Shown: positions 325 to 48,966 of the stretch, piece after piece | Numbering within the stretch: position 1 is the first letter of the stretch | Layout: each line of letters begins with the position of its first letter | Source: Candidatus Entotheonellaceae bacterium | GTDB lineage: Bacteria; Tectomicrobia; Entotheonellia; Entotheonellales; Entotheonellaceae | DNA: 64,000 nucleotides | Assembly: GCA_965238075.1 (NCBI GenBank) | Contig: OZ250173.1 | Span: forward strand, 2,624,001 to 2,688,000 | Reading direction: 5' to 3' | Position numbers and translations under genes: made by a program | Notes under the pieces: model-generated | Database searches by the model: none | The model's input: only the letters and a program-made list of their open reading frames with translations | Told to the model about the DNA's origin: nothing

Positions 325-2013
<1,689 letters not shown>

Positions 2014-4523: not shown

Positions 4524-6068
4524 ATGGGAGATTCCTGGTTGACCAAAGAGCAACTGAAAGTCCTGCGGCATGCCAATGAGGATGAGGGGTTTCGCTTACC
4601 GATTCCGACACAGGTTATTTCAGACGGCGAAATCTTCCCGCCCCCGCAGTCGAGACAACAGGCCATGGTCGAGGCGCTGATCAAGGAAAGGGCCGGCGTT
4701 CTCGGCAAGCCACATGGCCTGAACCGGCGGCAGTTTCTCAGAACCGCCTCGGGTATGGCCGCCGCCTTCCTGGCCATGAACGACGTGTATGGCAAGGTTT
4801 TTACCGTCGATCAGGCGGAAGCGGCGGATTTCGAAGCGGCCGACGCGCGCCTGGCGGCCTTGCGCGACCAATTCATCTTCGACGCCCATACCCACCACGT
4901 CCACGATGACTACACCTGGGAAGGGCAGCTCTTCCTGCTGCAATACTCCCGGGGTGATCAAGAGGCAGGGTTGCCGTCGTGGACCAGCGAGTTGGAGGGC
5001 CGCGAGCTTGACCTGAAGTACTTCAAGTTCCCGCATTACGTCAAGGACATCTTCTTTGACAGTGAAACCGATGTCACTATCCTGAGCAATTCCCCTTCAG
5101 TTGTGCCGGAAAAGCAGCTCCTCACGGAGGACCAGTTGGTGGCCAGCCGGAACTACATCAACGGCATGGCGCGCACCAAGCGGGTCTATGCCCACGGTAC
5201 GATCTGGCCCAGCAATCAACCGTTCCTCGACGATATGGACCGGCAGGCCGAGGAGCTCAAGATCGACTCCTGGAAGGGCTATACGATCGGCGATCCGTTG
5301 GGGCTCGTGCCGGAGGCCAATTTTCCCTGGCGGCTGGATGACGAGAAGGTCACCTACCCAGCCTATGAGAAGGCCATGAAGTATGGCATCAAAAACCTCT
5401 GCATCCATAAAGGATTGCTACCGGTTGACTGGAAGTCTTTCGAAAACTGGCGTTACGCCGCGGTGGATGATGTGGTCAAGGCGGCAAAAGATTGGCCGGA
5501 ACTGAACTTCATCATCTACCACTCGGGTTTCAGGGCCTTCATGGACGTACGAGAGTTTGCCGCGGAATTTGAGCAAACCGGCAAGATTCCGTGGGTCGAC
5601 GATTTGGCCGAGATTCCGAAAAAGCACGGTCTTACCAACGTTTATGGCGAGATCGGGCTATCCTTCTCGTCCTGCATCACCTCCTACCCCAGGGTCGCAG
5701 CTGCCATGCTGGGCCGGCTCATCCAAGGCATGGGCGCCGACCATGTTATCTGGGGCACGGATTCGATTTGGTTCGGCTCGCCTCAGTGGCAGATCGATGC
5801 CTTCCGGCGTCTGGAGATCCCCATGGACCTGCAGGAGAAATTCGGCTTTGCCCCCTTGGGTCCTGCGGATAGCGAGGTCAAAAAAGCCATCTTGGGCTAC
5901 AACTCAGCGAGGATGTACGGTCTGGGGCTCACGGCTGATGGCCGACCGGTTGAGGCGTTCGAGAAGGATCGACTGGCGCGCTTGAGGAACGACTATCTCG
6001 CTGCCGGTGGCATGCGTGACAACATCTACTGGGGTTGGATCCATAAACAGGAGCGGGCAACCGTCTAG
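4524..6068 (+). CDS. Amidohydrolase family protein with internal twin-arginine motif
   Basis: DAHTH metal motif, CIHKG, IYHSG, WGTDS; NRRQFL followed by a hydrophobic stretch near residue 67. Confidence 0.88.
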   Translation: MGDSWLTKEQLKVLRHANEDEGFRLPIPTQVISDGEIFPPPQSRQQAMVEALIKERAGVLGKPHGLNRRQFLRTASGMAAAFLAMNDVYGKVFTVDQAEAADFEAADARLAALRDQFIFDAHTHHVHDDYTWEGQLFLLQYSRGDQEAGLPSWTSELEGRELDLKYFKFPHYVKDIFFDSETDVTILSNSPSVVPEKQLLTEDQLVASRNYINGMARTKRVYAHGTIWPSNQPFLDDMDRQAEELKIDSWKGYTIGDPLGLVPEANFPWRLDDEKVTYPAYEKAMKYGIKNLCIHKGLLPVDWKSFENWRYAAVDDVVKAAKDWPELNFIIYHSGFRAFMDVREFAAEFEQTGKIPWVDDLAEIPKKHGLTNVYGEIGLSFSSCITSYPRVAAAMLGRLIQGMGADHVIWGTDSIWFGSPQWQIDAFRRLEIPMDLQEKFGFAPLGPADSEVKKAILGYNSARMYGLGLTADGRPVEAFEKDRLARLRNDYLAAGGMRDNIYWGWIHKQERATV

Positions 6069-6138
6069 GCTGGGCGCCAGAGCCTTCCCGCGGCCATGCC
6101 GTGCAGGCTTGGCGCGGGAACGGTCAGGCTTCGGAGAG

Positions 6139-6165
6139 GTCGGGGCGAAAGATTTTCGCCCCGAC
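6139..6165. repeat. REP-like palindrome between convergent genes
   Basis: gtcggggcgaaa-gat-tttcgccccgac, perfect 12-bp stem. Confidence 0.7.
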
Positions 6166-6171
6166 AATGGC

Positions 6172-7242
6172 CTAGTACAGAGCCACCGGGTTGCCGGGAG
6201 AGCCGGTCGCGCCGACGATCTTCAGGGGTGACCAGACGAACAGGAACTCGTACGCCCCGTCCCTGATCAGCGGGGTGAAGTCGAGATTCTCGATGTTCCA
6301 GATACCGCGCCGCGTTTGCATTTCGGTGTGGCACGGTACCGCGTACCCTTCTGCCTCGCCAACCGGCTGGGCGTCATTCGCCGACGTATCGCCGCCGGTC
6401 AGAATGATTTTGCGCTCGGCAAAGTACTCGCAGGCGCTAACGCCGAAGCCCGGCTCGCCGGAGTTGAACATCTGCCGGCGCTGCGCCTTCTCTTCTGCGG
6501 ACAGGGTGGGCCACACTTCGTTCGACCACAGGTCGCCGTGGCCGGTGTACAGAAACACGCAGTCGCCCTCGCTTATGTCCGAGAGGCCCTGCTTGCGCAA
6601 CATGCCCCGCACGTCGTCGGCGGTGACAATGCCTGGACTGTCCGTCGCGCGCGGAATCGGCAGCGGGTTCATGCCCTTGTAGTCGGCGGCGTTCAGCAGC
6701 ACGCCGCGGCACACGAAGCCCTTCTCCGCTACAAACTCGACACCAAGGCCGCCCATACCGATGACGCGTCCGCCGGCGCCGCGGGTGTAGGCCTCGGCAG
6801 CCATTTGGCCGTTGTAGAAGAAATCGCCCGCCGAAGTGCGCACGCCGATGTGTCCCGGACCGTCGAATTGGGTGCTCACCTGGCCGATCTCAGTGGTTAC
6901 CATCTCGTCGTGATACACCAGGTTGTTCTTGCCGAACGGGCCGCCGGTGGGAGTGCCGGGAATGGTCAGGCTCCAGATGCGCGGGCCAAAAAGGGGAACG
7001 TCGGAGGCGTACAGTTTGCCAAGCGTCGCCACCTTGCCCTGCTTGACCAGCCTGATCGCGTTCAAAACCATCTCCGGCGTGGTGCGGTTGGGTGCGCCGA
7101 CCCGGTCGTCCGGACCCCATTCCGTCGGAGCCCAGTTTTCCATGAGCGGCTTATCGTCCATCTGGGCGTGGGCCGCGGCGCCAAACAGGCACAGCGCAAC
7201 GACCATCGCCAAGGCAGAAATCCTGTTCATTCGGGATGCCAT
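6172..7242 (-). CDS. Secreted cyclase family (kynurenine formamidase-like) metallohydrolase
   Basis: Signal peptide ending AHA; QVSTQFDGPGH, IENL, GATGSPGNP. Start at ATG 7242 inferred. Confidence 0.85.
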   Translation of the reverse strand: MASRMNRISALAMVVALCLFGAAAHAQMDDKPLMENWAPTEWGPDDRVGAPNRTTPEMVLNAIRLVKQGKVATLGKLYASDVPLFGPRIWSLTIPGTPTGGPFGKNNLVYHDEMVTTEIGQVSTQFDGPGHIGVRTSAGDFFYNGQMAAEAYTRGAGGRVIGMGGLGVEFVAEKGFVCRGVLLNAADYKGMNPLPIPRATDSPGIVTADDVRGMLRKQGLSDISEGDCVFLYTGHGDLWSNEVWPTLSAEEKAQRRQMFNSGEPGFGVSACEYFAERKIILTGGDTSANDAQPVGEAEGYAVPCHTEMQTRRGIWNIENLDFTPLIRDGAYEFLFVWSPLKIVGATGSPGNPVALY

Positions 7243-7357
7243 ATCAACTCCTTCTCGAAGTCGGACATACACTTTCCGAAGGCAACGACGTACCGTTACC
7301 AAATATAAGGGGATATGCGGGTATTGATTTCATAAACGGCCTGTGATGTCAAGCGCA

Positions 7358-8242
7358 TTACACCGGCATGGCGCGTCTGGTATGGGTGCGACCCTCCTTA
7401 GCTGTTTCCTCCCGGCCGCCGGCGATCACACGCACGCCCGCGTCGATTTTTGCGATCACCGTCTCCGGTGTGCAACTTTCCAGGAAGGCCAGTCCGTTTA
7501 CCCGGCAGGCCCGAAAGACACGGTCGCGCGCCCGCTGCATGTCCGGCGGGAACGGCTCGCGCGGCACCTGTTTGTAGCCCAACGCCAGACCCAGATCGCC
7601 GGGGCCCATTTCGGCGAACCCAAGGCCGGGCACGCTGAGTATCTGTTCGGCGTTGGACACGCCTTCGGGGCTCTCGATCTTCACACCCAGGAGTAGCTCG
7701 CCGCGCGGGTTGAGGGGCCACGGGTCGGCGCGGTCGAGGTATGCCTCCGGGCTTACGCCCCATACGGCCGCCGCCTCGGACTCCGAACCGCGCCCGCGCC
7801 GGCCAACCCGCAGACCGCGACCGACGCCGACGGCATGGATCGGATAGCGGCAAGACTCCACAAAGGCGCGCACGGCGTCGGCTGATTCCGCCTGGCAGAG
7901 CAGGATACCGTGGACGCCGCGGGCCAGAATCTGCCTGAACTGCCAGCTGTTGTTTCGAATAACAGGCTCGCTCGATCCGTCGACCGGGACTTCGACAATG
8001 ATTGTCGGTGTTCGGTGACCACTGGCCGTCGGGCCGCCGTCGACCAGCCCCTGCATGTACGTCCCCAGCCCGGTCATGTCGAACGCCCCGTGCTCCATGC
8101 CGACGTTGATGTAATCCGCCCACGTGTTGGCGTCCTCACGGCCCTGCTCGTAGGTGAGGACGTGTCCGGTATGGCCCCCGTCGTAGTAAACGGGCTGGCC
8201 GCTCACCAGCAGGGCGATGGTACGATTGATACGGTGTTGCAT
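7358..8242 (-). CDS. HpcH/HpaI aldolase / citrate lyase family protein
   Basis: MEHG, VESCRYP, VKIESPEG, GPGDLG. Start at ATG 8242 inferred. Confidence 0.85.
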   Translation of the reverse strand: MQHRINRTIALLVSGQPVYYDGGHTGHVLTYEQGREDANTWADYINVGMEHGAFDMTGLGTYMQGLVDGGPTASGHRTPTIIVEVPVDGSSEPVIRNNSWQFRQILARGVHGILLCQAESADAVRAFVESCRYPIHAVGVGRGLRVGRRGRGSESEAAAVWGVSPEAYLDRADPWPLNPRGELLLGVKIESPEGVSNAEQILSVPGLGFAEMGPGDLGLALGYKQVPREPFPPDMQRARDRVFRACRVNGLAFLESCTPETVIAKIDAGVRVIAGGREETAKEGRTHTRRAMPV

Positions 8243-8435
8243 GGGGCATCCTTTCCGTTTTTGGCCAGGAAATTCGGGCCTCAAGAGGTGTTGTTCAGAA
8301 CGCCTCGTTCTGCGCCTGTCAGTGCGCCCGGGAAGCTCTTGACAGGTAGAAGAGGGCATGGCACCTTAGATGCCTTCGCCGCCGCAGGCAAGGCGGTAAA
8401 CAAGTTTGGCGATATTCCTTAATAGGAGAGAGGGC

Positions 8436-9416
8436 ATGCAAAGGTACAAGGCACTAATTATTGTCATGCTGGCGCTTGTATTTTGCGTCTCGTCAGCGAT
8501 GGCTCAGACCAAGGAGATGGGACCGTGGTGGCCGCACCCGATCTGGGGGGCTGGTGATCAGTCCGGCGGTTCGAACTGGATTACGGCGGAAAAGATTGTC
8601 GACTCGCTGAAGATGGTGACGACGGGCAAAGTCTACGAGATCGGTCAGGTGTACGAGCGTGGCATGCCGCTGTTCGGGCAGCGCACCTATTCGATTTTCG
8701 CCAACCAGGCAGGCCCGTTTGGCGACAACATGCTGATGGGTCACGACGATTTTCTGTGCGCCGAGATCGGCCAGGTGGGCACGCAGTTCGACGGCCCGGC
8801 CCACATCGGCATGCGCATGACCATGGCCGACGGCACCAGCAAGGACGTGTACTACAATGGCTTTACGGAACAGGACGACATGAAAGGCTTTTACGGCGTC
8901 GAGAGTTTGGGTATCGAGAACGTCAAGCCGTACATCACCCGCGGCGTTCTGGTTGACGTTGCCGGGTACAAGGGCGTGGATACCCTCGACCACAGCTACG
9001 AAGTCACCATGGACGACGTGCGTGGCGCGCTCGCCAAGCAGGGCATTTCCGAGTCGAGCATCAACGACGGTGACGCGCTGTTCTTCAACTATGGCTGGTC
9101 GAAGCTGTGGGGCGATCCCGACACCTATAACACCAACCCCCCGGGTATCGGCATGGAAGTGGCCGGGTGGGTCGTGGCGCAGAATGCCTCAATGGTCGGC
9201 TCCGACTCCTGGCCGACCGAGGTGTGGCCGAGCCCGACCGGTCTGGTCGTGCCGGCACACCAGGAACTGATCACGAAGAACGGTATTTTCAACCTGGAAA
9301 ATATGGTCTTCGAAAGCGTGATTGCAGACGGCGTGTACGAGTTCCTCTATATCTTCACGCCCATCCGGTTTAAGGGCGCCACCGGCTCGCCGGCCCGTCC
9401 GCTGGCTATTCGGTAA
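8436..9416 (+). CDS. Secreted cyclase family metallohydrolase, paralogue of 6172-7242
   Basis: Signal peptide ending AMA; QVGTQFDGPAH, LENM, GATGSPARP. Confidence 0.85.
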   Translation: MQRYKALIIVMLALVFCVSSAMAQTKEMGPWWPHPIWGAGDQSGGSNWITAEKIVDSLKMVTTGKVYEIGQVYERGMPLFGQRTYSIFANQAGPFGDNMLMGHDDFLCAEIGQVGTQFDGPAHIGMRMTMADGTSKDVYYNGFTEQDDMKGFYGVESLGIENVKPYITRGVLVDVAGYKGVDTLDHSYEVTMDDVRGALAKQGISESSINDGDALFFNYGWSKLWGDPDTYNTNPPGIGMEVAGWVVAQNASMVGSDSWPTEVWPSPTGLVVPAHQELITKNGIFNLENMVFESVIADGVYEFLYIFTPIRFKGATGSPARPLAIR

Positions 9417-9547: not shown

Positions 9548-11053
9548 TTACGCCCGTTTGGCGATATACCCGTAAGCGGTGTTGTCACGCAGGGCCGTGA
9601 GCTTACCAGCCGCGTCGTAATCCCGCTTGATTTGCGCAAACTTGTCCTCGCTCAGGCGGCCATAGTTAGCCTGCAGATCGAGGTTGTACAAGCGTGCGGA
9701 GTTGAGGCCGAAGATCTGTTGCTTGACTGAGCTGTCGGCACCACCCAGAGGCGCGAAGCCGTACTTCTCCTGCATGTCCTCGGGGATTTCCATCCGGCGC
9801 ATCGCCTCGATCTGCCACTGCGGCGAACCGTAGAGCACGGAGTCGGTGCCCCACACGACGTTGGAGGCGCCCAGGCCCTTGATCCAGGTGCCCAGAATCG
9901 CCGCCGTGAGGCGCGGGTTGACGATGGACGTGGATGCGAAGGTCGTACCCATTTCGGCGTAGATGTTCGAGGCGCCGTTCTGGGCCGGGATGTCGGCCAG
10001 ATCCGAACACCACTCGATCCTGCCGGTATTCTCGAAATCGCCCAAGCCATCTTCGGGCTTGTCGAACCAGGCCCGGAAGCAGCCGTGGTAGATGATGAAG
10101 TTGAGCTGCGGCCAGTCTGCCGCGGCCTTGACGAGGTCGCGCGGCGTCTGGTATTCCCACACGCCAGCCCAGCTCTGCTCGTAATCCCTCGGCATCAGGC
10201 CCTTGTGGATGCACAGGTTGACGATGCCCGCCTTCGCGGCTTTCTCGTAGAACGGGTACATCAACTTCTCGTCATCGAGCCAGAAAGGATACTTCGTTTT
10301 GGCAGACAGGGGATCGCCGATGGTGTAGAGCTTCCAGCTTGCGGGCGGCCGCTCGGCCAGGGCGCGGTCGACTTCTTCCATCCAGCCGGGCTGTCCCGGG
10401 GTCACCACGTTATGGGCCAGCATGCGGGTGTGCCCCGCCGTGGTGTTGACCATCTTGGCGGCTTCGGCGATCTGCGCGTTGCTGAGGAATTCCCAGGAAT
10501 CGTCATCAAACGGCGCACCGCTCAACACCGACACGTCGGTATCGCTGTTGAGGTAAATCTGCCGCACGTAGTTCTCGAACTTGATCAGATAGATGTCGAT
10601 GTTATTGGGGTCCATCCCCGTCTTAAAGTCCGTGGCCGTCTGCTGCAAGAAGCCGAGGAAGCCTTCCTGCGAGTAGTCGTCGCGCACGAAGTGGGTCTGC
10701 ACGTCGAAGATGAACTGCTGCCTGAGGGCTTCGGCGCGCTCGTTGGCCATGGCGGCGTCGGCGGCCTCGGCCTCGGACACGTTGAACACGTTGCCGTACA
10801 CGCTGTTCATCGCCAGGAAGGCGGCGGCCATGCCGGAACTGGTTTTGAGGAACTCGCGGCGGTCCATGCCCTGCTTGGCACCGTACGTGTCGGCCAGTTC
10901 CTTGATGCGTGCTTCAACTTGCTTTTGCTGTGCGTTCTGCGGCGGCGGGTTGAATTCGCCGTTGGAGATGACCTGCGTGGGAATCGGCGAGTGGAACGCG
11001 TTTTCCGCTCCTTCGACGAGTGAAAACTCACGATCACTGAAATAGGTACCCAT
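9548..11053 (-). CDS. Amidohydrolase family protein (tandem copy 2)
   Basis: DVQTH, CIHKG, IYHG, WGTDS; internal DRREFL. Confidence 0.88.
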   Translation of the reverse strand: MGTYFSDREFSLVEGAENAFHSPIPTQVISNGEFNPPPQNAQQKQVEARIKELADTYGAKQGMDRREFLKTSSGMAAAFLAMNSVYGNVFNVSEAEAADAAMANERAEALRQQFIFDVQTHFVRDDYSQEGFLGFLQQTATDFKTGMDPNNIDIYLIKFENYVRQIYLNSDTDVSVLSGAPFDDDSWEFLSNAQIAEAAKMVNTTAGHTRMLAHNVVTPGQPGWMEEVDRALAERPPASWKLYTIGDPLSAKTKYPFWLDDEKLMYPFYEKAAKAGIVNLCIHKGLMPRDYEQSWAGVWEYQTPRDLVKAAADWPQLNFIIYHGCFRAWFDKPEDGLGDFENTGRIEWCSDLADIPAQNGASNIYAEMGTTFASTSIVNPRLTAAILGTWIKGLGASNVVWGTDSVLYGSPQWQIEAMRRMEIPEDMQEKYGFAPLGGADSSVKQQIFGLNSARLYNLDLQANYGRLSEDKFAQIKRDYDAAGKLTALRDNTAYGYIAKRA

Positions 11054-11191: not shown

Positions 11192-12697
11192 TTAGGCACG
11201 TTTGGCAATATAGCCGTACGCCTTGTTGTCACGCAGGGCGGTGAGCTTGCCGGCCTGATCGTAGTCCCGCTTGATCTGCGCGAACTTGTCCTCGCTGAAC
11301 CGACTGTAGTCGGCTTGCAGGTCGAGGCCGTATAGGCGCGCAGAGGTGAGACCCAAGATCTGGTTCTTGACCGCGCCATCGGCGGAGCCAAGCGGCGCAA
11401 AGCCGTACTTCTCCTGCATATCTTCGGGTATTTCGAGGCGGCGCAGGGCGTCAATCTGCCACTGCGGCGAGCCGTGAAATACGGAGTCCGTTCCCCACAC
11501 CACGTTGGAGGCGCCGAGGCCGTTGATCCAAGTGCCCAGGATGGCCGCCGTGAGGCGCGGGCTGACGATTGCTGTCGAAGCGAAGGTGGTACCCATCTCC
11601 GCATAAATGTTCGAGGCGCCGTTTTGCGCCGGGATCTCGGCAAGGTCGCTGCACCACTCGATCCTGCCGGTGTTCTCGAAGTCGGCCATGGCATCTCCGG
11701 GCTTGTCGAAGAAGGCCCGGAAGCAGCCGTGGTAGATGATGAAGTTGAGCTGCGGCCAGTCTTTCGCCGCCTTGACGAGGTCGCGCGGGGTTTGGTATTC
11801 CCACACGCCGGCCCAGCTGTCGGCGTAATCCCTCGGCATGAGCCCCTTGTGGATGCAGAGATTGTTGATGCCCGACTTCACGGCCTTCTCGTAGAAGGGG
11901 TACATCAGCTTCTCGTCATCGAGCCAGAAGGGGTATTTCGTCTTGGGAGTCAGCGGGTCGCCGATGGTGTACAGCTTCCAACTGGCGGGTGGCCGCTCGG
12001 CCAGGGCCTGGTCCACTTCATCCATCCAGCCGGGCTGTCCTGGCGTTATCACCGCGTGGGCCAGCATGCGGGTATGCCCCGCCGTCTGGTTGACCATATT
12101 GGCGGCTTCGGCAATCTGCGCGTTGTTGAGGAACTCCCAGGTGTCGTCATCGAAGGGCGCGCCGCTCAAGACGGATACCTTGGTATCGCTGTTGAGGTAG
12201 ATCTGGCGCACATAGTTCTCGAACTTCATCAGGTACATGCTGATGTTGTTCGGGTCCAGGCCGTTTTTCCACACGTCGGCGCCTTCTTTCAGGAAGCCGA
12301 GGAAGCCGTCCTGAGTGTAGTCGTCGCGTACGAAGTGGGTCTGGACGTCGAAGACGAACTGGTTCTTGAGGGATTCAGCGCGTTCGTTGGCCATGGCGGC
12401 GTCGGCAGCCTCGGCCTCTGAGACATCGAACATGTTGCCGTACACGCTGTTCATGGCCAGGAAAGCGGCGGCCATGCCGGAACTGGTTTTCAGGAACTCG
12501 CGGCGGTCCAGGCCCTGCTTGGCGCCGTACGTATCGGCCAGTTCCTTGATGCGCGCTTCGACCTGCTTCTGCTGCGCGCTCTGCGGTGGCGGATTGAACT
12601 CCCCATTCGAAACGACCTGGGTTGGAATCGGTGAGTGAAAGGCGTTTTCCGCGCCTTCCACGAGCGAGAATTCTCTGTCACTGAAATAAGTACCCAT
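11192..12697 (-). CDS. Amidohydrolase family protein (tandem copy 1)
   Basis: Same length (501 aa) as, and collinear with, 9548-11053. Confidence 0.88.
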   Translation of the reverse strand: MGTYFSDREFSLVEGAENAFHSPIPTQVVSNGEFNPPPQSAQQKQVEARIKELADTYGAKQGLDRREFLKTSSGMAAAFLAMNSVYGNMFDVSEAEAADAAMANERAESLKNQFVFDVQTHFVRDDYTQDGFLGFLKEGADVWKNGLDPNNISMYLMKFENYVRQIYLNSDTKVSVLSGAPFDDDTWEFLNNAQIAEAANMVNQTAGHTRMLAHAVITPGQPGWMDEVDQALAERPPASWKLYTIGDPLTPKTKYPFWLDDEKLMYPFYEKAVKSGINNLCIHKGLMPRDYADSWAGVWEYQTPRDLVKAAKDWPQLNFIIYHGCFRAFFDKPGDAMADFENTGRIEWCSDLAEIPAQNGASNIYAEMGTTFASTAIVSPRLTAAILGTWINGLGASNVVWGTDSVFHGSPQWQIDALRRLEIPEDMQEKYGFAPLGSADGAVKNQILGLTSARLYGLDLQADYSRFSEDKFAQIKRDYDQAGKLTALRDNKAYGYIAKRA

Positions 12698-17746: not shown

Positions 17747-17821
17747 AAGGAGATCTAGCGGGCGCCCTATCGCCGTCCGGTCTGCGTTTTCGGTCACAAC
17801 GAAATGAAAGGGGAGTCGGAT

Positions 17822-18763
17822 ATGATACTCGGCAGTGGTGACTTACGCTTCGAACCGGTGGTCGATTGGGAAAAGCTGCCGGCGGGTTGGTCGTTCGTCG
17901 ATGTCGCCGGCGTGGCGGTCGATTCCCACGATAACGTGTACGTGCTGAACCGCAGCGAGCACCCCGTCATCGTCTTCGACCGCGACGGGAATTTCCTGCG
18001 CTCCTGGGGCGAGGGCGCTTTCAGCGACCGCACGCACGGCATTTACGTCGGACCCGACGACAGCGTCTATTGCGTGGATGACGGCCTGCACACGGTTCGC
18101 AAATTCACGACCGAAGGCAAACTGCTCCTCACCCTCGGCACGGAAAGCCAGCCGGCTCCCAAATGGGCCGGTAAGCCCTTCAACCGCCCGACGCATGCGG
18201 CAGTCTCGCCGATTACCGGCAATCTGTATGTTTCCGACGGTTACGGCAACTCCCGTGTTCATATCTTCACGCCCGACGGGCGGCCCGTGCATTCCTGGGG
18301 TGAGCCCGGCATCGACCCCGGACAGTTCATTCGCCCGCACAACGTGGCCATCGATCAGGATGATCAGGTGTATGTGGCCGACCGGGAAAACCACCGTATT
18401 CAGGTATTCGACGCCAAGGGCAACTTCCTCAGCATGTGGAACAATATCCACCGTCCCGACGGCATCTGCCTCGACAAGGCCGGTTATCTGTACATCGGCG
18501 AGTTGAACGGCATGGCCGGCGTCGATGATGCGCCCGGCTTGGGGCACCGGGTGAGCATCTACAACCTGAAAGGCGAGTTGCAGACGCGTTTTGGCGACCC
18601 CGAGGAGGGGGAGGGGCCGGGCCAGTTCATCGCGCCGCACGGGGTGGGCGTCGACTCACGCGGCGACGTCTATGTCGGCGACGTGGCCTACACCATCCGA
18701 GGACGACACCTCGAGCCGCCGCGGGAATTGAAGTGTTTGCGGAAATTCAGCCGGAAGCGATAG
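17822..18763 (+). CDS. NHL-repeat protein (peptidyl-alpha-hydroxyglycine amidating lyase-like)
   Basis: Repeated PHGVxVD / YVADRENHRIQVF beta-propeller units; DGYGNSR. Confidence 0.88.
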   Translation: MILGSGDLRFEPVVDWEKLPAGWSFVDVAGVAVDSHDNVYVLNRSEHPVIVFDRDGNFLRSWGEGAFSDRTHGIYVGPDDSVYCVDDGLHTVRKFTTEGKLLLTLGTESQPAPKWAGKPFNRPTHAAVSPITGNLYVSDGYGNSRVHIFTPDGRPVHSWGEPGIDPGQFIRPHNVAIDQDDQVYVADRENHRIQVFDAKGNFLSMWNNIHRPDGICLDKAGYLYIGELNGMAGVDDAPGLGHRVSIYNLKGELQTRFGDPEEGEGPGQFIAPHGVGVDSRGDVYVGDVAYTIRGRHLEPPRELKCLRKFSRKR

Positions 18764-30467: not shown

Positions 30468-31556
30468 TCAGGAAGAGTCCTCGCGGGCGAGCAGGATCCG
30501 CTTCCGTTCCACTCCCCAGCGGTAGCCGCCGAGTGCGCCGTCGTTCCGGACCACCCGGTGGCAGGGGATCGCGACGGCGAGCGGGTTGGAGGCACATGCG
30601 CGCGCGACCGCCCGGGCCGCTTTCGGCGAGCCGACGCGATCGGCGATCGTGCCGTAGCTGGCGGTCGTACCGGCGGGAACTTCCCTCAGCGCCTGCCATA
30701 TCCGCCGCTGGAACGCCGTCCCGAGGATGTCCAGCGGCAGGTCGAGGCCGAGCGCGGGCGCTTCGACGAAGCCGATGACTCGGGCTACCACGGATTCGAA
30801 CTCCGAATCTCCCCCAACCAGTTTCGCCCGCGCAAAACGGTCCTCCAGCTCGTTCACCAAGACGGTCGGATCGTCGCCGAGCAGAATCGTACAGACCCCT
30901 CCGGCCGTCGCCGCGACGAGGATGGAGCCGAGCGAACACTCGCCGACGGCGAACCGGATCTTCTCGCCCGTGCCACCGCGCCGGAAGGTCGAGGGAGCCA
31001 TCCCGAGCGTCGCCGACGAGGCCGCGTAGAACCGGCCGCTCGAGTTGAACCCGGAGTCGTAGATAGCGTCGGTGACTGTTCGGGACGTCCGCAGCGCCTC
31101 GCGCATCCGATCCGCACGGTGAGCGGCGGCGTACGCCCGCGGCGTGCAGCCGGCGACGGCCTTAAAGACTCGGTGGAAATGAAACCGGCTCATGCCGGCC
31201 GCTCCCGCGAGCGCGTCGAGGTCCGGGACCTCCTCCGCGGTCTCGATGAGGCGGCACGCGGTTGCCACCGCCTCCGCATGCCTTTCGGCAAGCGGAAGAT
31301 CGTTTGGGCGACAGCGTCGGCACGGCCGGAAGCCGGCATTCTCGGCGACCTCGCAGGAAGCGTGGAAGCGCACGTGCTCGCGCCGCGGTCGTCGGGCCGC
31401 GCAGCCCGGACGACAATAGACACCGGTCGTCGCGACGGAGTAGACAAACTCGTCACCAGCGGCATGGTCGCGGTTCACGACCGCCACCCAACGTTCCTCG
31501 TCGCTGCTGAATCGGGTCGGCATGGGGGTTCGGATCGCCTTCGGTTCGGCCATCAT
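30468..31556 (-). CDS. ada: Bifunctional Ada transcriptional activator / O6-methylguanine-DNA methyltransferase
   Basis: CRPGC…FRPCRRC zinc domain, AraC helix-turn-helix, AIPCHRV active site. Confidence 0.95.
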   Translation of the reverse strand: MMAEPKAIRTPMPTRFSSDEERWVAVVNRDHAAGDEFVYSVATTGVYCRPGCAARRPRREHVRFHASCEVAENAGFRPCRRCRPNDLPLAERHAEAVATACRLIETAEEVPDLDALAGAAGMSRFHFHRVFKAVAGCTPRAYAAAHRADRMREALRTSRTVTDAIYDSGFNSSGRFYAASSATLGMAPSTFRRGGTGEKIRFAVGECSLGSILVAATAGGVCTILLGDDPTVLVNELEDRFARAKLVGGDSEFESVVARVIGFVEAPALGLDLPLDILGTAFQRRIWQALREVPAGTTASYGTIADRVGSPKAARAVARACASNPLAVAIPCHRVVRNDGALGGYRWGVERKRILLAREDSS

Positions 31557-31730
31557 ATCTTCTCCTCGGGTCGTTGCATCGCCGGCGGTGAGCGGCCCTG
31601 CTCGCCGCGATGGATATCTTGGTATTTGCGCCACGATAGAGAATTTGGCATGCCCGCCGCGGTCGCGCACTCCGATTCTTGCTTTCGAATTCGCCGGCGG
31701 AGGTGAGTGCCGGCCCCCGCTCCGATTCGA

Positions 31731-31830
31731 ACGCCACACGGCCGGCGAGATCGCAAATCAGGCCAACCAGCTATCCGCCGAGGGTCATGCCGGAGCCGGA
31801 GAACAAGTACTGCGCGGCGATTCGCCGTGC
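31731..31830 (-). pseudogene. Degraded fragment resembling an MFS transporter helix
   Basis: RRIAAQYLFSGSGMTLGG*LVGLICDLAG with TAG where Trp (TGG) is typical; family recalled from memory only. Confidence 0.35.
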
Positions 31831-43544: not shown

Positions 43545-43636
43545 GGGCGGATGTGGCGAGGGCGGCCTCGTCGGCATCGGGCGGTGAGCCCGAGGCTTGG
43601 AAAAATGACCGCGCGAGCGGTTGCGCCATGTTGGTG

Positions 43637-43740
43637 TAACCCCCCAACCCCCCTTGTCAGGGGGGCTTTGGGCAAAGCATCTTGGGAGGTGTGTTTTGCC
43701 GGTCCAGAATTTTCCCCCTGATAAGGGGGCGAGGGGGGTT
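43637..43740. repeat. Inverted pair of C/G-rich REP-like elements upstream of DUF559
   Basis: taaccccccaaccccccttgtcaggggggc (43637-43666) and ccccctgataagggggcgaggggggtt (43714-43740). Confidence 0.8.
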
Positions 43741-44141
43741 ATATCCCCTACAACAAGTCCCTGACCGAGAAGGCACGTCAAAACCGCACAAACCCAACCC
43801 CGGCGGAACGGAAACTCTGGTTCGAGGTCCTGCAAAACAAACGTTTCGATCATTTGAAGTTCACCTGCCAGAAACCGTTGAGCGACTATATCGTCGATTT
43901 CTATTGCGCTGCGCTGATGCTGGCCATTGAAATAGACGGGGACAGTCACGACGAGCACCAACGATACGATGAAACCAGAACCCGCAGGTTGAATGCTCTG
44001 GGTATTGAGGTCATCCGCTACACGAATGCCGAGATCATGAACAATCTCGAGGGCGTGTATGAAAGCTTGCTGAAACGCGTGACGGAAAGGAGGAACTCCT
44101 GCGTTGGCCCTTTTGATGCACCTTTGTCAGGTCGGAAATGA
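43725..44141 (+). pseudogene. DUF559 (Vsr-like) endonuclease lacking a start codon
   Basis: GGYIPYNKSLTEKARQNRTNPTPAERKLW…FTCQKP…YIVDFYC…AIEIDGDSH…D..R; in-frame TAA at 43722 and no start codon before the conserved N-terminus. Confidence 0.8.
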
Positions 44142-44163
44142 CGGGCAGGTCCGACGCTCCTCC

Positions 44164-44688
44164 TCAGTGCTCCATCAATATCTCGACGCACTGGGCGACG
44201 GCCTCTCTGGCTTTGGCGCGCAGAACGGCATCGTCGTTGTTGCTGATGGGGTGGGGGATGACGGCGAAGGGGAAGGCGGGCATGCCGGTGGCGCGGGCCA
44301 TGGCTTCGGCGGTGGCGGTGAAGCGGTCGGTCATGATGGCGGTGGCGGCGAGGCCGGCTTTCCTGGCGGAAACGGCGTCATGCAGACTGCATGAGGAACA
44401 GCTGCCTCAATCGCCGACGGCGGAGATGACGGCGTCGGCGGCTCGCATGCCGGCGATAACGTTGGCTGGTGCCGGGCGGCTGGCGTCGGGCTTCTTGAGG
44501 CGGATGACGTGGGTGACGCCGTGCTCGGTGCGCAGAATGTCTTCCATGTGGTCGAGTAACTCGCGCACACGGATTTTACCGTTGTCCAGGAGGCCGACGG
44601 TTCGGCCCTGCAGCGAGGTCAGACGGGCGGCATCGGTTGTGGCAGTGGCGACATCTTCAGCAGTGGGATCAAGAACTTGCAGAGACAT
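44164..44688 (-). CDS. UGSC-family selenoprotein (Sec94)
   Basis: Read-through of TGA 44407-44409 gives …DAVISAVGD-U-GSCSSCSLHDAV…F…A…GMP…VIPHPI…; perfect hairpin tcatgca-gtc-tgcatga begins 13 nt after the UGA. Confidence 0.92.
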
Positions 44689-44708
44689 GAGCGGTAGCTC
44701 TCCCCGGT

Positions 44709-45758
44709 TCAGGGTGAATCAATCGTTTGGGTGACGGCTTGCGCTTTGGAGCCGAGCCACGGCGGAATGACGCTCCCGAATCCGCCAGCAGGGCCGCCGG
44801 CCGCCACGACGAGCAGGTCGTCCGGGGTGCGCAGGGCGGTGAATTCCTGATCGGGTCCGCCGCTGCGGTTGACGATGTTGGCTTTGCCGACCGTCGCCCA
44901 TTGCCGCCGCAGCACCCGCGCGGCGTGGAAGACGTACTCGCGGACATCGCTTTTCTGCCAGCCGGCGGCAACGAGTAACTCCCGCAACTGCTTCGGAATG
45001 ACCAGGAAGTAGCTGCCGGACCACACTGAATACGTTAGCATGTTGTATCGCATCTCGGCGGCGAAGGTGTCGAGGATTTCCTCCGGGTCGTGTGTCCACT
45101 CGTTCATGATCTGGCGCGGCGGCGCTACCGACATGACGGTGACCGCGGACGCGCCGGCCGGCACGCCGCGCTCCTGTGCCAGTGGCAGCCACGGGCTGTC
45201 CTCCTCGTCTTCGGCGATGCAGAAGGCGAACTTGCCCGGATGCCCGAGGGTCGAGCGGTCGAGTTGGCCGGGTACGCAGCTAAGCAGATTGATCAACACC
45301 AGCCGCACCGTGCGGCCAATGGTGGCGTTGGCGCGGTTGCCGTTGGCCAGCACGTTGTGCGTGGCGTTCATGCCGATGGCGCCGCGCACCGGGCCATTGA
45401 CCACGATGAACGGCGCGCTGCCGCCCGTGCTTGCCGTGCTGCCGTGCATGTTGAACCGTTCCTGGCACATGGCCCGCAGCACCGCTACCACTACCGGCAT
45501 GTAGTCTGGCCGGCATCCCGCCATCACGGCGTTGATCGCTATCTTCTCGGCGGTCAGCGGGCGTTGCCGCACACGCTCTACTCCCAACACGTCGTCCGCA
45601 TCCAAACCAGCCGCCTGCAAGCACGCTGCGACGCGCTCCGCGGTCGGTGGCACAATGGGCAGGCCGTCGGTCCAGCCTTGTTCCTGGTAGAACTCGTTGG
45701 CTTCAAAGGCGTCGGCCACGTCGTAGGTGGCCGCTTGCAGTCGGGTGGGGTGCGTCAT
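44709..45758 (-). CDS. Conserved DGLP-motif protein, usual partner of UGSC proteins
   Basis: GWTDGLPIVPPT, INAVMAGCRP, RANATIGR, GHPGK, VVAAGG. Confidence 0.75.
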   Translation of the reverse strand: MTHPTRLQAATYDVADAFEANEFYQEQGWTDGLPIVPPTAERVAACLQAAGLDADDVLGVERVRQRPLTAEKIAINAVMAGCRPDYMPVVVAVLRAMCQERFNMHGSTASTGGSAPFIVVNGPVRGAIGMNATHNVLANGNRANATIGRTVRLVLINLLSCVPGQLDRSTLGHPGKFAFCIAEDEEDSPWLPLAQERGVPAGASAVTVMSVAPPRQIMNEWTHDPEEILDTFAAEMRYNMLTYSVWSGSYFLVIPKQLRELLVAAGWQKSDVREYVFHAARVLRRQWATVGKANIVNRSGGPDQEFTALRTPDDLLVVAAGGPAGGFGSVIPPWLGSKAQAVTQTIDSP

Positions 45759-45843
45759 AGTTGGACCCTCAAGAAACCCGCGATTGTGATTTCAAGCGGG
45801 GAATCGGAGCAGGTACGAAGGTGAGCAGAAGCTGAACAGGTTA

Positions 45844-46617
45844 TCAGTGATGCTCTTTGAGGGTATCGGCGCGCAGGCCGTTACGGAGCGTTTCGACGGG
45901 GATAACTTCGGAGGGGGGGATGTTGCCGACGTTGACGTGGTTGCCGTAGTGTTTGAAAAACCACGTTTGCTGCTTTTTCTGCGGGGCTTCAAAGATGAGG
46001 TTCTGCAGGCCGATGGCGCGAACGATCTGATCGACTTCCTGCGACTGCACGTCGCCCGTGGCATCGAACACGCCGACGGTGCCGGTTTCCCGGCCTTCGA
46101 TGATGACCTTCCACGCGCCAGCCTTGAGTTCGGCTCTGGCCTGGGTGATGCGTTCATCAACGCTGATCTCACTGTCCTCGTACGGGCATTTCTTGCCGAT
46201 TTCGGACAAGACACATAGCTGGCGCGCCCTGGCTTGGCGGATCAGGCACAGCTTGGTCTCGTGCGGCATCGCCACGGTGCCGTCCGAGATTTCAACGCAG
46301 GTAAAGCCGAACTGCTTGATCTCCGTTAAGAATTCCGCCACGCAGTTCTGAGCAACGGCTACCTCCATCAAGGTGCCGCCGGGGCAAACGTAAATCTCGT
46401 TGTCGTGCAAGATGCGGATCTTGTCGCGCAACCGTTCGGCAGTGAACAGCTGCGACGTGCCCCAGCCGAATTTGACGATATCGATGTAGGGCGCGGCGTC
46501 CGCCACGAAATCTTCCAGTTGCATTACCCCCAGGCCCTTGTCTAGAACTGAGGTCAATCCCTGTTCACGCGGTTTCTTTGTTCGGACGGGGAGGGAGATA
46601 CAGTCATAGGCGTGCAT
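45844..46617 (-). CDS. comA: Phosphosulfolactate synthase
   Basis: KPREQGLT, VKFGWGT, GGTL, EISDG, IEGRE, FEAP, LRADT. Confidence 0.92.
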   Translation of the reverse strand: MHAYDCISLPVRTKKPREQGLTSVLDKGLGVMQLEDFVADAAPYIDIVKFGWGTSQLFTAERLRDKIRILHDNEIYVCPGGTLMEVAVAQNCVAEFLTEIKQFGFTCVEISDGTVAMPHETKLCLIRQARARQLCVLSEIGKKCPYEDSEISVDERITQARAELKAGAWKVIIEGRETGTVGVFDATGDVQSQEVDQIVRAIGLQNLIFEAPQKKQQTWFFKHYGNHVNVGNIPPSEVIPVETLRNGLRADTLKEHH

Positions 46618-46765
46618 TTCAACTCTCCTTGGTTAACGGATGCCGCAGATGGTTGGCCATGCATCCCTATCGCATTGCAACGACTTGTTCAGGACCGTCC
46701 TTAGCACCTCCGATTTTTGTGTGTTTGGCCAGTAGACCACATTCCAGCCCCCATGTCGAGCCCGC

Positions 46766-47812
46766 CTACGGCTCCTGATGAATCTGCACCTTGATCGAGC
46801 CGGTGGTTTTGTCGTAGGCGGTGTCGAAACCCTGCTGAATCTCGTCCAACGAAAAGACGTTGGTGACCATGGGTTGTAGGGGCGCCTTGCCGGAGGACAG
46901 CATGTTGATGGCCAGCTCGTAGTCGTGCTGGCCATTCAGGATGCCGTAGCACGACGAAAAGAGGATGGCTTGTTCCTTGAGAAGGGGCGGCAGCCAATCC
47001 AGCGTGATGGGTCGCCGGAAGCCGCCCAGGATGACGATGCGGCCCTGCATGCGGGTTACATCAATGGCTTGCTCCAAGGTGTCGCCGTTCCTGCCGCCGA
47101 CGGTTTCGATAGTCAGGTCGGCGCCGCGTCCGTCGGTTGCGCCCTCGACTGCTTCCTTGAGGGCCGCACCTTCCGGCGGCAGGACGTCGTCGGCCCCGAG
47201 GCGTTTCGCCAACTCGCCCTGCTGGGCGTGGCGAGCAGTAACGAAAATCCTGCCGGCGCCCAATGCGCGGGCCGCAGCCACGGTTGTCAGGCCGATGTTG
47301 CCGGCCCCTAGCACCACCACGGTTTCGCCGCCTTGCATCTGACCGCGGCGGACGCCGTGTACCGACACGGCGAGCGGCTCGACCAGGGCGCCTTCTTCCC
47401 ACGACATGCCGTCGGGCAGCGGGTAGCAGCCGATGGCGCGGCGTTTCATGTACTCGGCAAATCCGCCGCCTTCGTTCTCCGCCTTGTTGAGGCACTGGCG
47501 GAACTGCCCCTGCCGGCAATACCAGCACTGCGCGCACGCCAGCCCGTGCCCGATGGTTTCGACCGCCACCCGTTGTCCGAGCAGGCCGCTTGCCACCCGG
47601 CTGCCGACTTCGACGATTTCGCCCGCGACCTCATGACCAAAGGGGATGGCGTCGGGCTCGGTTTTGTCGGCATTCATGAGCAGGTCGGAGCCGCAGATAC
47701 CGGTGGAGCGGACGCGAATGACGACGTCCTCGGGGCCGGGTTCGGGGGCGGCTATGTCGGCCAGCATCATGGCGTTGTCGCCGTCGAAGAAAGCGGCTTT
47801 CATCTTGGGCAT
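46766..47812 (-). CDS. Zinc-dependent alcohol/polyol dehydrogenase (MDR family)
   Basis: GICGSD, GHE, C-x2-C-x2-C-x7-C, GAGNIG. Confidence 0.92.
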   Translation of the reverse strand: MPKMKAAFFDGDNAMMLADIAAPEPGPEDVVIRVRSTGICGSDLLMNADKTEPDAIPFGHEVAGEIVEVGSRVASGLLGQRVAVETIGHGLACAQCWYCRQGQFRQCLNKAENEGGGFAEYMKRRAIGCYPLPDGMSWEEGALVEPLAVSVHGVRRGQMQGGETVVVLGAGNIGLTTVAAARALGAGRIFVTARHAQQGELAKRLGADDVLPPEGAALKEAVEGATDGRGADLTIETVGGRNGDTLEQAIDVTRMQGRIVILGGFRRPITLDWLPPLLKEQAILFSSCYGILNGQHDYELAINMLSSGKAPLQPMVTNVFSLDEIQQGFDTAYDKTTGSIKVQIHQEP

Positions 47813-48006
47813 GGGTAGTCCTTCCGTGGCTTGGGTGGCAATGGCGTGGCACTTCAGGCAGGTGGCGTCAGGAGGGCGCACCATACGCGTTTCCCGCCGG
47901 GTTTGCAAGCGGCGGCTCGGCTTGTTGCGCTGGGCCGCCTTTGCCATAATGGACCACTCAGCAAGGCGGAATCGTTGGCCACACGAACTATAAAGGAGAG
48001 AGTGAC

Positions 48007-48966
48007 ATGGCGACGCTGTTGGGAAGTGGCGATTTTCAGTACGAGGTTGACGTAGCCTGGGGCAAGCTGCCCGACGGGTGGTCCTACAAGGAGGCGGCGG
48101 CGGTCGGCGTGGACGCCAACGACAATGTCTACGTGTTCAGCCGGGGCGACCATCCCATGATCGTCTTCGACCGTCACGGCAATTTCCTGCGGTCCTGGGG
48201 CGAGGACCTGTTCGTGCGTGCCCACGGTGTCACCATCGGGCCCGACGAGTCGATTTACTGCACCGACGACGGCGACCATACGGTTCGCAAGTGCACCTAC
48301 GACGGCAAGGTGCTGCTGGAACTCGGCGTACCGGGCCAGGCGGCTGCGATGCACAGCGGCAAGCCGTTCAACCGTTGCACCCACATTGCCCTGTGCCCGG
48401 ACACGGGCGCCATCTACGTGGCTGACGGCTACGGCAACTCGTGCGTGCACAAGTACGACCCGAACGGCAAGCTGCTCTTCTCGTGGGGCGAGGCGGGCAC
48501 CGACCCCGGCCAGTTCAACATCGTGCACAACATCTGCACGGACAAAGAAGGCTACGTGTACGTCGCCGACCGTGAGAACCATCGCGTGCAGGTATTCGAC
48601 CGCAACGGCAAGTATGAGACGGCGTGGAGCAACGTGCACCGCCCCTGCGGCCTGTTCATGGATAGCGGCGACGCAGAACTGTGCTACATCGGCGAGCTGG
48701 GCTCGGGCATGGCGGTGAACGCCACGCACCCGAACCTCGGCCCGCGCATCGCCATCCACAACCGCAAGGGCGAGGTCCTCATGCGGCTGGGCGATGACAC
48801 CAAGGGCGCTGGCGAAGGGCCGGCCCAGTTTTTGGCGCCGCACGGGGTGACGGTGGATTCGCATGGCGACATCTACGTCGCGGAGGTGTCCTGGACCAGT
48901 ATCGGCCAGCACCAGAACCCGCCGCGCGAGATGCAAACACTGCGCAAGCTGATTAAACGTTCGTAG
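48007..48966 (+). CDS. NHL-repeat protein, paralogue of 17822-18763
   Basis: DGYGNS, YVADRENHRVQVFD, FLAPHG. Confidence 0.88.
   Translation: MATLLGSGDFQYEVDVAWGKLPDGWSYKEAAAVGVDANDNVYVFSRGDHPMIVFDRHGNFLRSWGEDLFVRAHGVTIGPDESIYCTDDGDHTVRKCTYDGKVLLELGVPGQAAAMHSGKPFNRCTHIALCPDTGAIYVADGYGNSCVHKYDPNGKLLFSWGEAGTDPGQFNIVHNICTDKEGYVYVADRENHRVQVFDRNGKYETAWSNVHRPCGLFMDSGDAELCYIGELGSGMAVNATHPNLGPRIAIHNRKGEVLMRLGDDTKGAGEGPAQFLAPHGVTVDSHGDIYVAEVSWTSIGQHQNPPREMQTLRKLIKRS

Follow-up and report, generated by a model that had tools for sequence, protein, structure and literature searches.

Does the open reading frame (ORF) that ends in AVGD at 44409..44407, on the minus strand of this stretch of DNA, really stop there, or is its last TGA a selenocysteine (Sec) codon, and what would the longer protein do beside the gene that precedes it? 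The stretch, hereafter the window, comprises 64,000 nucleotides (nt) of contig OZ250173.1 from a Candidatus Entotheonellaceae bacterium. The two genes in question are that of a UGSC-family protein and that of its partner from the DGLP family. The UGSC gene is almost certainly a real selenoprotein gene. We favour, with moderate confidence, a reading in which the pair forms a two-gene operon and the UGSC protein is the dedicated selenol/thiol reductant of a two-cysteine partner enzyme. The locus itself is not a discovery, and it is comparison with related loci that turns 'function unknown' into a testable proposal. The features of the locus are as follows.

44709..45758, minus strand: partner gene, an ORF of 349 amino acids (aa) of the DGLP or 'Unknown_1' family, stop TGA at 44711..44709
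44689..44708, minus strand: intergenic spacer of 20 nt containing GGGGAGAG, which resembles a Shine-Dalgarno sequence, 9 nt ahead of the UGSC ATG
44164..44688, minus strand: full UGSC selenoprotein gene, 174 codons with Sec as codon 94, true stop TGA at 44166..44164
44407..44409, minus strand: in-frame UGA read as Sec (U94), first residue of U-G-S-C
44406..44395, minus strand: spacer of 12 nt between the UGA and the selenocysteine insertion sequence (SECIS)
44378..44394, minus strand: SECIS upper stem-loop, with 5' arm 44394..44388, loop GUC 44387..44385 and 3' arm 44384..44378

Reading frame across the UGA codon

The ORF at 44407..44688 encodes 93 aa from the ATG at 44688 and ends in AVGD before the TGA at 44409..44407. 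When this TGA was translated as U, the frame continued for 80 further codons beginning U-G-S-C-S-S-C-S-L-H-D-A to give a product of 174 aa, which agreed with the clean U-GSCSSC continuation described in the original prediction. The perfect hairpin TCATGCA-GTC-TGCATGA that had been noted just past the UGA was present at 44394..44378, with 12 nt separating the UGA from the first hairpin base. The partner ORF carries the motif WTDGLPIVPPT and, as had been stated, ends 20 nt before the UGSC ATG. A consensus scan of 43900-48100 yielded no promoter-like sites and three terminator-like sites, all on the plus strand and at or below the shuffle level, while a possible terminator fold 3' of the UGSC gene had a z-score of +0.59.

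The window sequence alone does not lift this locus above chance; homology and comparison do. The window has a G+C content of 62%, and TGA terminates 18 of its 47 listed ORFs. Past the TGA, eight of these 18 (counting the UGSC ORF) run on for 40 codons or more, and because frames so often stay open the read-through frame is weak evidence for a selenoprotein here without homology. Perfect hairpins with a 7-base pair (bp) stem number 12 in the 64 kb when the loop is 3 nt and 30 when it may be 3-6 nt. No Rfam family reached its gathering score in the window, and only two chance matches (E-values of 3-7) fell in 44330-44440. The significance of the locus therefore derives from a UGSC profile that spans both halves of the gene and from a TGA/TGC column and a hairpin that are conserved across 68 loci.

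Identity of the UGSC protein and its selenocysteine column

The translated product matched Pfam PF24696 (UGSC) at 174.4 bits against a cut-off of 25, with protein residues 4-172 aligned to profile positions 1-171 of 172. Since this alignment extends over residues 4-172, both flanks of the UGA belong to one domain, and the assignment to the UGSC family was thus borne out over the full length of the profile. A homologue search of a set of 5.8 billion proteins returned 24 relatives in the length range, of which 20 were aligned after exclusion of the four weakest. Eleven of the 20 have Cys at the Sec column, so that the CGSC of the Cys homologues occupies the position expected from the original prediction, two have Trp and five end at GD; the remaining two were a C-terminal piece and a sequence diverging past the Sec column. 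The combination of Cys, Trp and an end at GD is the signature of a selenoprotein truncated by ordinary annotation. The two Trp-bearing database proteins (P0122 and P0123, reading GDWGSC) presumably reflect an annotation artefact in which a gene caller using a Trp table translated the TGA. UGSC relatives appear in protein databases as stubs of 93-106 aa, as C-terminal pieces or with Trp at the Sec position, and the locus is a clean example of a selenoprotein hidden by gene callers.

Within 49 UGSC sequences U94, G95 and C97 were invariant and S96 was at least 90% conserved. The extra Cys at U+6 that the original prediction had pointed out is present here and is common, occurring in 55 of 66 Sec copies, but it is not a conserved feature. 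The window protein resembles the known family, as represented by PF24696, NCBIfam NF041046 and the available part of the 2008 survey of Zhang and Gladyshev (PMC2398784), in its profile, its U-G-S-C motif, its UGA with stem-loop and its strong preference for Sec. Judged by these traits, the UGSC gene is an ordinary member of a known family of predicted selenoproteins.

Pairing of UGSC with the DGLP partner in related loci

Genome contigs were searched with a profile of the partner and not of UGSC, and the best 80 of at least 616 matching stretches were kept. As the scan was seeded with the partner, the co-occurrence of UGSC could be tested without circularity. A UGSC profile derived from full-length alignment rows was run on six-frame translations with TGA read through, and at least 100 profile positions were required for a match.

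A UGSC gene lay beside the partner in 68 of the 80 loci. In 63 it followed the partner on the same strand, in one (L055) it lay downstream but on the opposite strand, and in four (L048, L077, L078 and L080) it was immediately upstream, where 59-90 nt separated it from the partner. The twelve loci in which UGSC was not found included five with 417 nt or less of downstream sequence, one with a Redoxin fusion instead (L073) and six with a solitary partner. Across the loci compared, the pairing of UGSC and DGLP is near-obligate, and the earlier description of DGLP as a dedicated partner is sustained by this adjacency and by the natural Cys-type pair that passes co-folding, described below. The codon at the Sec column of the 68 loci was TGA in 64 and TGC in four (L050, L060, L064 and L068).

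By their record titles, the loci span the Alpha-, Beta- and Gammaproteobacteria, Acidimicrobiia, Chloroflexota, Acidobacteriota, Myxococcota, Rokubacteria and Methylomirabilota, and their hosts belong mostly to aerobic heterotroph lineages. Cultivated hosts are available for both forms, with Cys-type pairs in Parapusillimonas granuli (LMG 24012) and Candidimonas nitroreducens and a Sec-type pair in Sheuella amnicola (NBD-18, locus L014). Only one of the 63 downstream pairs (L074) was an in-frame fusion. A cluster of 14 ORFs resembling DGLP-UGSC fusions was rejected after a frame check showed them to be out-of-frame shadow extensions.

Additional UGSC copies were seen in a few places. Locus L049 holds two Sec-type UGSC genes with intact hairpins (3275-3787 and 7227-7733, plus strand) within 13 kb, and L002 and L024 come from the same metagenome-assembled genome; some genomes therefore carry more than one copy of the pair. 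Locus L036 has a second, divergent UGSC-like ORF (1093-1512, plus strand, E-value 1.2e-09) about 4.5 kb upstream of its main pair, with an in-frame TGA in the context AA-U-GAC and three of seven hairpin pairs in the usual register. This could be a decayed copy or one with a different SECIS geometry.

Conservation of the SECIS element

A gapless alignment of the 48 nt from each UGA was made for 66 Sec copies, consisting of the window and 65 locus copies with the divergent L036 copy excluded. The 7-bp stem was complete in 45 of these and had six of seven pairs in the other 21. The four Cys-type genes formed only 4, 2, 2 and 4 of the seven pairs at the stem positions, so that the hairpin was lost in all four. 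When a 9-bp version of the helix was considered, 88% of cells were paired, compared with 11-49% when the 3' arm was slid by one to three columns. Changes on both sides of a pair were found in 13 cells against 3.5 +/- 1.6 in shuffled alignments (none of 500 shuffles reached 13), and the covariation score was 0.128 against 0.081 in shuffles. The usual Cys...His pair (UGC...CAC, forming U-A) was replaced by Gly...Leu (G.U), Ser...Leu (A-U) or Arg...Arg (C-G), and in a further replacement by Trp with a switched G-C pair.

Codon choice within the stem was frozen, with Ser at U+7 encoded by AGU in 57 of 57 cases, Cys at U+6 by UGC in 55 of 55 and Ser at U+5 by UCG in 54 and UCA in two. Outside the stem it was free: Ser at U+2 used six codons and Cys at U+3 was UGU in 17 and UGC in 49. 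G23 and U24, numbered from the U of the UGA, were invariant in 66 of 66. Covariation, frozen synonymous codons and loss of the hairpin in the Cys forms all bear out the proposal that this is a SECIS, and on this comparative evidence the hairpin is a real one.

The likeness to the Escherichia coli fdhF element that had been claimed was also confirmed, positions 23-29 (GTCTGCA) being identical and in the same register. In E. coli, the determinants recognised by SelB are G23, U24 and the bulged U17. The fdhF gene of E. coli K-12 reads GCAGGTCTGC after an 11-nt spacer while the window reads GCAGTCTGC after 12 nt, and both have a stem-loop shortly 3' of the UGA in which the apical-loop G23-U24 are equidistant from the UGA. 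They differ in that fdhF (GGUUGCA-GGUC-UGCACC) has a bulged U in the 5' arm and a GGUC loop whereas the window has a GUC triloop and no bulge; the window stem is a continuous 7 bp, which extends to 9 bp in about 39 of the 66 relatives, and the triloop is GUN. The window SECIS is, by this comparison, a different variant that is predicted to work like the fdhF element.

The alternative to a selenoprotein is that the TGA is a true stop, either in a nonsense-mutated Cys homologue or between two small genes, or that TGA has been reassigned. It draws on a Sec machinery that is unverified and on the eight of 18 TGA-ended window ORFs that stay open. It is opposed by the TGA at the exact same column in 64 of 68 loci from many phyla with a conserved downstream half, and by a hairpin that is maintained at the expense of synonymous-codon freedom. 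Reassignment across the genome is excluded because TGA ends 18 of 47 window ORFs and is hence not a sense codon genome-wide. We regard this alternative as exceedingly improbable.

The partner family

The partner is distinguished by the motifs DGLPIVPPT, C82 (in NAVMAGC) and C180 (in FCIAE). It had no Pfam or NCBIfam match, even at an E-value of 10 or less. The family is very large, with 7773 of 8000 scored candidates significant and all named ones called 'hypothetical protein', and it comprised 5150 representative clusters (50% identity) at E-values of 1e-3 or less and 1163 at 1e-30 or less. Among 55 diverse members D31, P34, A80, G81, P88, R149 and G321 were invariant, and G32, L33, P37, P38, C82, R142-A145, C180, E183 and W190 were nearly so. 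C82 and C180 were both invariant in a set of 15 sequences that included UGSC-paired, Redoxin-fused, ferredoxin-thioredoxin reductase (FTR)-fused and solitary forms.

The AlphaFold2 model of the partner was of high confidence, with a predicted local distance difference test score (pLDDT) of 94.4 and a predicted template modelling score of 0.93. A profile search against the PDB gave nothing at an E-value of 1 or less, and neither this search nor Foldseek found a solved structural relative. The cyclic-amide hydrolase ('Toblerone') and class I fumarate hydratase folds were considered and rejected, since their Foldseek template modelling (TM) scores of 0.17-0.28 were too weak. The ESM Atlas returned only the family's own unnamed clusters, one of which had been given the name 'Thioredoxin family protein' automatically and shows no common Pfam family. 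A glycine-rich stretch at about residues 316-330 of the partner reads VVAGG-x-AG-x-F(S/G), in which G321 is invariant among the 55 members and the set of 15 keeps G321, A324 and G325 unchanged. It resembles an anion- or phosphate-binding loop and could fit a coenzyme A (CoA) or nucleotide ligand.

That UGSC and this partner are linked has been in print since 2008, in the form of the 'UGSC/Unknown_1' fusion. Zhang and Gladyshev described an Unknown_1 domain fused to the UGSC C-terminus in ocean reads (PMC2398784, Fig. S1A), and the available part of that paper gives Unknown_1 as a 60-column block only, without function, operon link or structure. The block shown there (…A[IV]N[AG]VMAGC[RK]P[ED]Y[ML]P…VNGP…) corresponds to partner residues 75-133, with about 37 of 59 positions identical between the window partner and the Sulfitobacter row when compared by eye, and the conserved Cys highlighted in it is C82 of the window partner. 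Unlike the fused Unknown_1 of that figure, the two are encoded separately in the window, the partner gene first and UGSC second, the most frequent arrangement among the loci (63 of 80).

Exchangeable redox modules

Thirty longer relatives of the partner were scanned against Pfam for appended domains. UGSC was the appended module in 17, an AhpC-TSA/Redoxin domain in five, the FTR catalytic chain in one and none was present in seven. Of the UGSC cases, four had a complete N-terminal UGSC domain, eleven opened with only the part of UGSC past the Sec column (eight above the Pfam cut-off and three below) and two ended in the N-terminal half of UGSC. N-terminal pieces from past the Sec column are expected because Sec-type fusions get cut at the UGA. 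Natural fusions of UGSC and partner thus occur in both orders. Locus L073 contributed an additional Redoxin-DGLP fusion (5488-7047, plus strand).

The Redoxin domains fused to the partner are N-terminal and have the active-site motif CPT[S/T/C]. Across these fusions and the rest of the family, domain and motif matches indicate that the variable module is always a thiol-disulfide electron donor and that the constant part always keeps its two cysteines. DGLP relatives resemble fusions of the Trx-MsrA-MsrB type in that a reductant module is joined to its target enzyme. They differ from such thioredoxin-fold fusions in that the acceptor family is uncharacterised and the usual donor is a selenoprotein with a flavodoxin-like model.

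The linkers of the Redoxin-DGLP fusions (P0195, P0223, P0239, P0266, P0275 and L073) share a conserved P-G-C-[GAS]-[SA]-[KR] with one more Cys, and the linker of the FTR-fused P0177 has P-G-T-G-V-K at the equivalent place. The Redoxin-DGLP linker motif may occupy the site that is taken by the UGSC N-terminal arm in the co-fold model.

Structure models and co-folding

The AlphaFold2 model of the UGSC protein (pLDDT 94.2) is built of five alternating strand-helix units, its third helix starting at U94. The Foldseek matches listed from the PDB were flavodiiron flavodoxin domains, AzoR and lumazine synthase, at TM scores of 0.33-0.55, and no thioredoxin structures were among them. A search of PDB sequences with the UGSC profile gave only noise (E-values of 0.27-0.66). 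A thioredoxin-like fold was proposed for UGSC in the available part of PMC2398784. It was not supported here because the model is a (beta-alpha)5 that matches flavodoxin-like structures, and we infer from the model that UGSC has a flavodoxin-like (beta-alpha)5 fold and not a thioredoxin topology. The window protein otherwise agrees with the 2008 description as far as the available part of it goes.

It had been suggested in the original prediction that the pair might transfer sulfur, and a relay can be envisaged in which a persulfide or perselenide on U94/C97 is passed to or from DGLP. The flavodoxin-like (beta-alpha)5 model with its active residue at a helix N-terminus, an architecture shared with the DsrE/TusD sulfur-relay proteins, would suit such a relay, as would the phosphosulfolactate synthase gene lying 85 nt upstream in the window. 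DsrE and TusD are absent from the listed Foldseek matches, however, the phosphosulfolactate synthase neighbour is not conserved in the 80 loci, and the modules that replace UGSC are disulfide reductases and not sulfur carriers. A relay is accordingly held to be very improbable.

The natural Cys-type pair of Parapusillimonas granuli (L060) was co-folded using table-11 alignments and three controls. The pair scored 0.76, against 0.00 for the best of the controls. In the calibration set, 116 of 157 solved complexes and two of 215 mismatched pairs attained that mark, but the calibration is only rough here, as the pair comes from another organism, has Cys in place of Sec and was run with alignments made for this analysis. 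The three L060 runs shared at least 65% of contacts, and the pLDDT of the partner was at least 86. On the UGSC side the confidently modelled interface included residues 9-21, which make up the conserved Asp-Pro arm (window D7-P8), and residues 102-104, the C-G-S of the redox motif at the Sec column. On the partner side it included residues at or next to P33, P34, N72, M75, L149 and N153 (numbered as in L060), which are among the most conserved columns. The co-fold pass supports binding between UGSC and DGLP but does not show it. Taken with the pairing, we consider it quite probable that the two proteins bind.

Proposed mechanism

The steps that follow lead to a mechanism in which UGSC reduces a Cys enzyme, and to that reduction we give roughly even chances. 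SelB and tRNA-Sec would read the UGA as selenocysteine, and the U-G-S-C selenol/thiol pair would be placed at the N-terminus of helix 3 in a flavodoxin-like (beta-alpha)5 protein. In a UGSC-DGLP heterodimer the Asp-Pro arm and the U-G-S-C loop would pack on the DGLP..PP, NAxMAGC and RLxLxN motifs of the partner. DGLP would be a two-cysteine enzyme (C82 and C180) that comes out of turnover with a cysteine oxidised or a disulfide formed. Sec94 would attack the oxidised partner cysteine to form a selenenylsulfide, Cys97 would resolve this to give an internal Se-S bond, and that bond would in turn be reduced by a general thiol system, for instance thioredoxin reductase.

The genes around the pair in other loci offer hints about the substrate. 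Family III CoA-transferases occurred in 15 of the 81 loci examined for neighbours and directly adjoined the pair in about nine. Other neighbours were SDR proteins (ten loci), LysR regulators (nine), TctC receptors (seven) and acyl-CoA dehydrogenases (six). Thioredoxin-reductase-like flavoproteins were found in four of the 81, and only the copy in L068 passed the TIGR01292 cut-off. The recurrent CoA-transferases hint that the DGLP substrate might be an organic acid or acyl-CoA. A more specific version, which is rather doubtful, would make DGLP and UGSC a new class of Se-dependent two-subunit reductase with a catalytic subunit of unseen fold, acting on a CoA-activated or free organic acid with electrons passing from NAD(P)H through a thioredoxin-reductase-like flavoprotein. 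If this were true, few uncharacterised redox enzymes of aquatic and soil bacteria would be as widespread as this pair, and its donor module would have been swapped repeatedly in evolution between UGSC-Sec, UGSC-Cys, Redoxin and the FTR domain.

The main alternative is that Sec attacks the substrate itself and that UGSC is the catalytic subunit, as in D-proline reductase (PrdA/PrdB) or glycine reductase. DGLP would then bind or activate the substrate and Cys97 would resolve a carbon-selenium intermediate. D-proline and glycine reductase likewise combine a small UxxC selenoprotein with a larger non-seleno subunit and receive thioredoxin-type electrons, and an analogy to PrdB/GrdB may be drawn from the UxxC motif of a small selenoprotein with an obligate larger partner. 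The catabolic neighbours (CoA-transferase III, acyl-CoA dehydrogenase and SDR) in a minority of loci point the same way. A strong preference for Sec would be expected if Se chemistry on carbon matters, and such a preference was seen both in the available part of the 2008 survey of the Global Ocean Sampling (GOS) data, with 255 Sec against 21 Cys forms (PMC2398784, Table 2), and here, with 64 against four. Unlike in those reductases, however, the hosts are mostly aerobic heterotrophs and no sequence relationship was detected; neither protein gave a match to Pfam GRDB, to a Gly_reductase-type family or to any other family bearing on this at an E-value of 10 or less. The replacement of UGSC by TlpA-like Redoxin (CPT[STC]) or FTR domains is a better fit to an exchangeable donor, and the two invariant cysteines belong to DGLP and not to UGSC. 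We consider a Sec nucleophile unlikely.

It is also conceivable that DGLP is a non-redox enzyme with two cysteines, for example an acid/base isomerase or racemase, and that UGSC does no more than keep those cysteines reduced, as a partner dedicated to repair or activation. The two invariant cysteines and the fact that the partner modules are all thiol-disulfide reductants are compatible with this, and the six loci with DGLP alone imply that the enzyme may work without a stoichiometric partner. Tight coupling in 68 of 80 loci together with repeated fusion would be unusual for a mere repair factor, however, and the modelled interface covers the most conserved motifs of the partner. This alternative is distinctly improbable.

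Several observations nevertheless weigh against a selenoprotein operon in which UGSC reduces DGLP. With C in place of U, the protein scored 124.5 bits against NCBIfam NF041046 ('UGSC family (seleno)protein'), just short of the cut-off of 125. Single-sequence folding of the 65 nt after the UGA was not significant (z = -0.97), and the minimum-energy fold of those nt pairs differently, with the hairpin kept only in the centroid. Within the 64-kb window ARAGORN found no tRNA and no SelA, SelB or SelD domain was found in 77 ORFs. The 15 other UxxC or CxxU read-through candidates in the window all lay over known genes in other frames. A solitary DGLP without a redox partner nearby occurred in six of the 75 loci having enough flank, and the neighbourhood past the pair was unconserved, no gene family being present in more than 15 of 81 loci. 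In the co-fold, itself that of a stand-in pair, C78 and C176 of L060 (C82 and C180 of the window) were not among the named interface residues. No substrate, cofactor or activity is known for UGSC or DGLP.

The last point agrees with the original prediction that no biochemistry had been assigned, none having been found in the available parts of PMC2398784 and PMC13188914 or among the listed papers that name UGSC. The 2026 review (PMC13188914), in its available part, places UGSC among selenoproteins with largely uncharacterised biological functions. What is added here is the near-obligate pairing, a SECIS shown by covariation and codon freezing, a partner whose family is very large but unnamed, keeps two cysteines invariant and, though confidently modelled, lacks a solved relative, a donor module interchangeable with ordinary disulfide reductants, and a natural pair that passes co-folding with the Sec-column residue within the modelled interface.

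Other genes in the window

The neighbours of the pair in the window are not common to the other loci and include ComA, a Zn-dependent dehydrogenase, a truncated DUF559, a luciferase-like monooxygenase and a branched-chain amino acid-type ATP-binding cassette transporter. Features outside the pair were as follows.

45844-46617, minus strand: phosphosulfolactate synthase (ComA), TIGR03849 'archaeal ComA' at 292.8 bits against a cut-off of 280
43854-44141, plus strand: DUF559 (endonuclease-like), 95 aa, N-terminally truncated, profile positions 33-108 of 109
4524-6068, plus strand; 9548-11053, minus strand; 11192-12697, minus strand: three Amidohydro_2 genes
6172-7302, minus strand; 8406-9416, plus strand: two 'putative cyclase' genes
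17804-18763, plus strand; 48007-48966, plus strand: two NHL-repeat beta-propeller genes
30468-31739, minus strand: Ada-type gene with Ada Zn-binding, AraC helix-turn-helix and O6-methylguanine methyltransferase DNA-binding domains

The ComA gene is on the same strand as the partner gene and is preceded by the Zn-dependent dehydrogenase (46766-47947). The DUF559 ORF lies 22 nt past the UGSC stop on the opposite strand, and the 309 nt before it (43545-43853) hold no family-matching ORF. The window is rich in paralogous families, as seen in the Amidohydro_2, putative cyclase and NHL-repeat genes.

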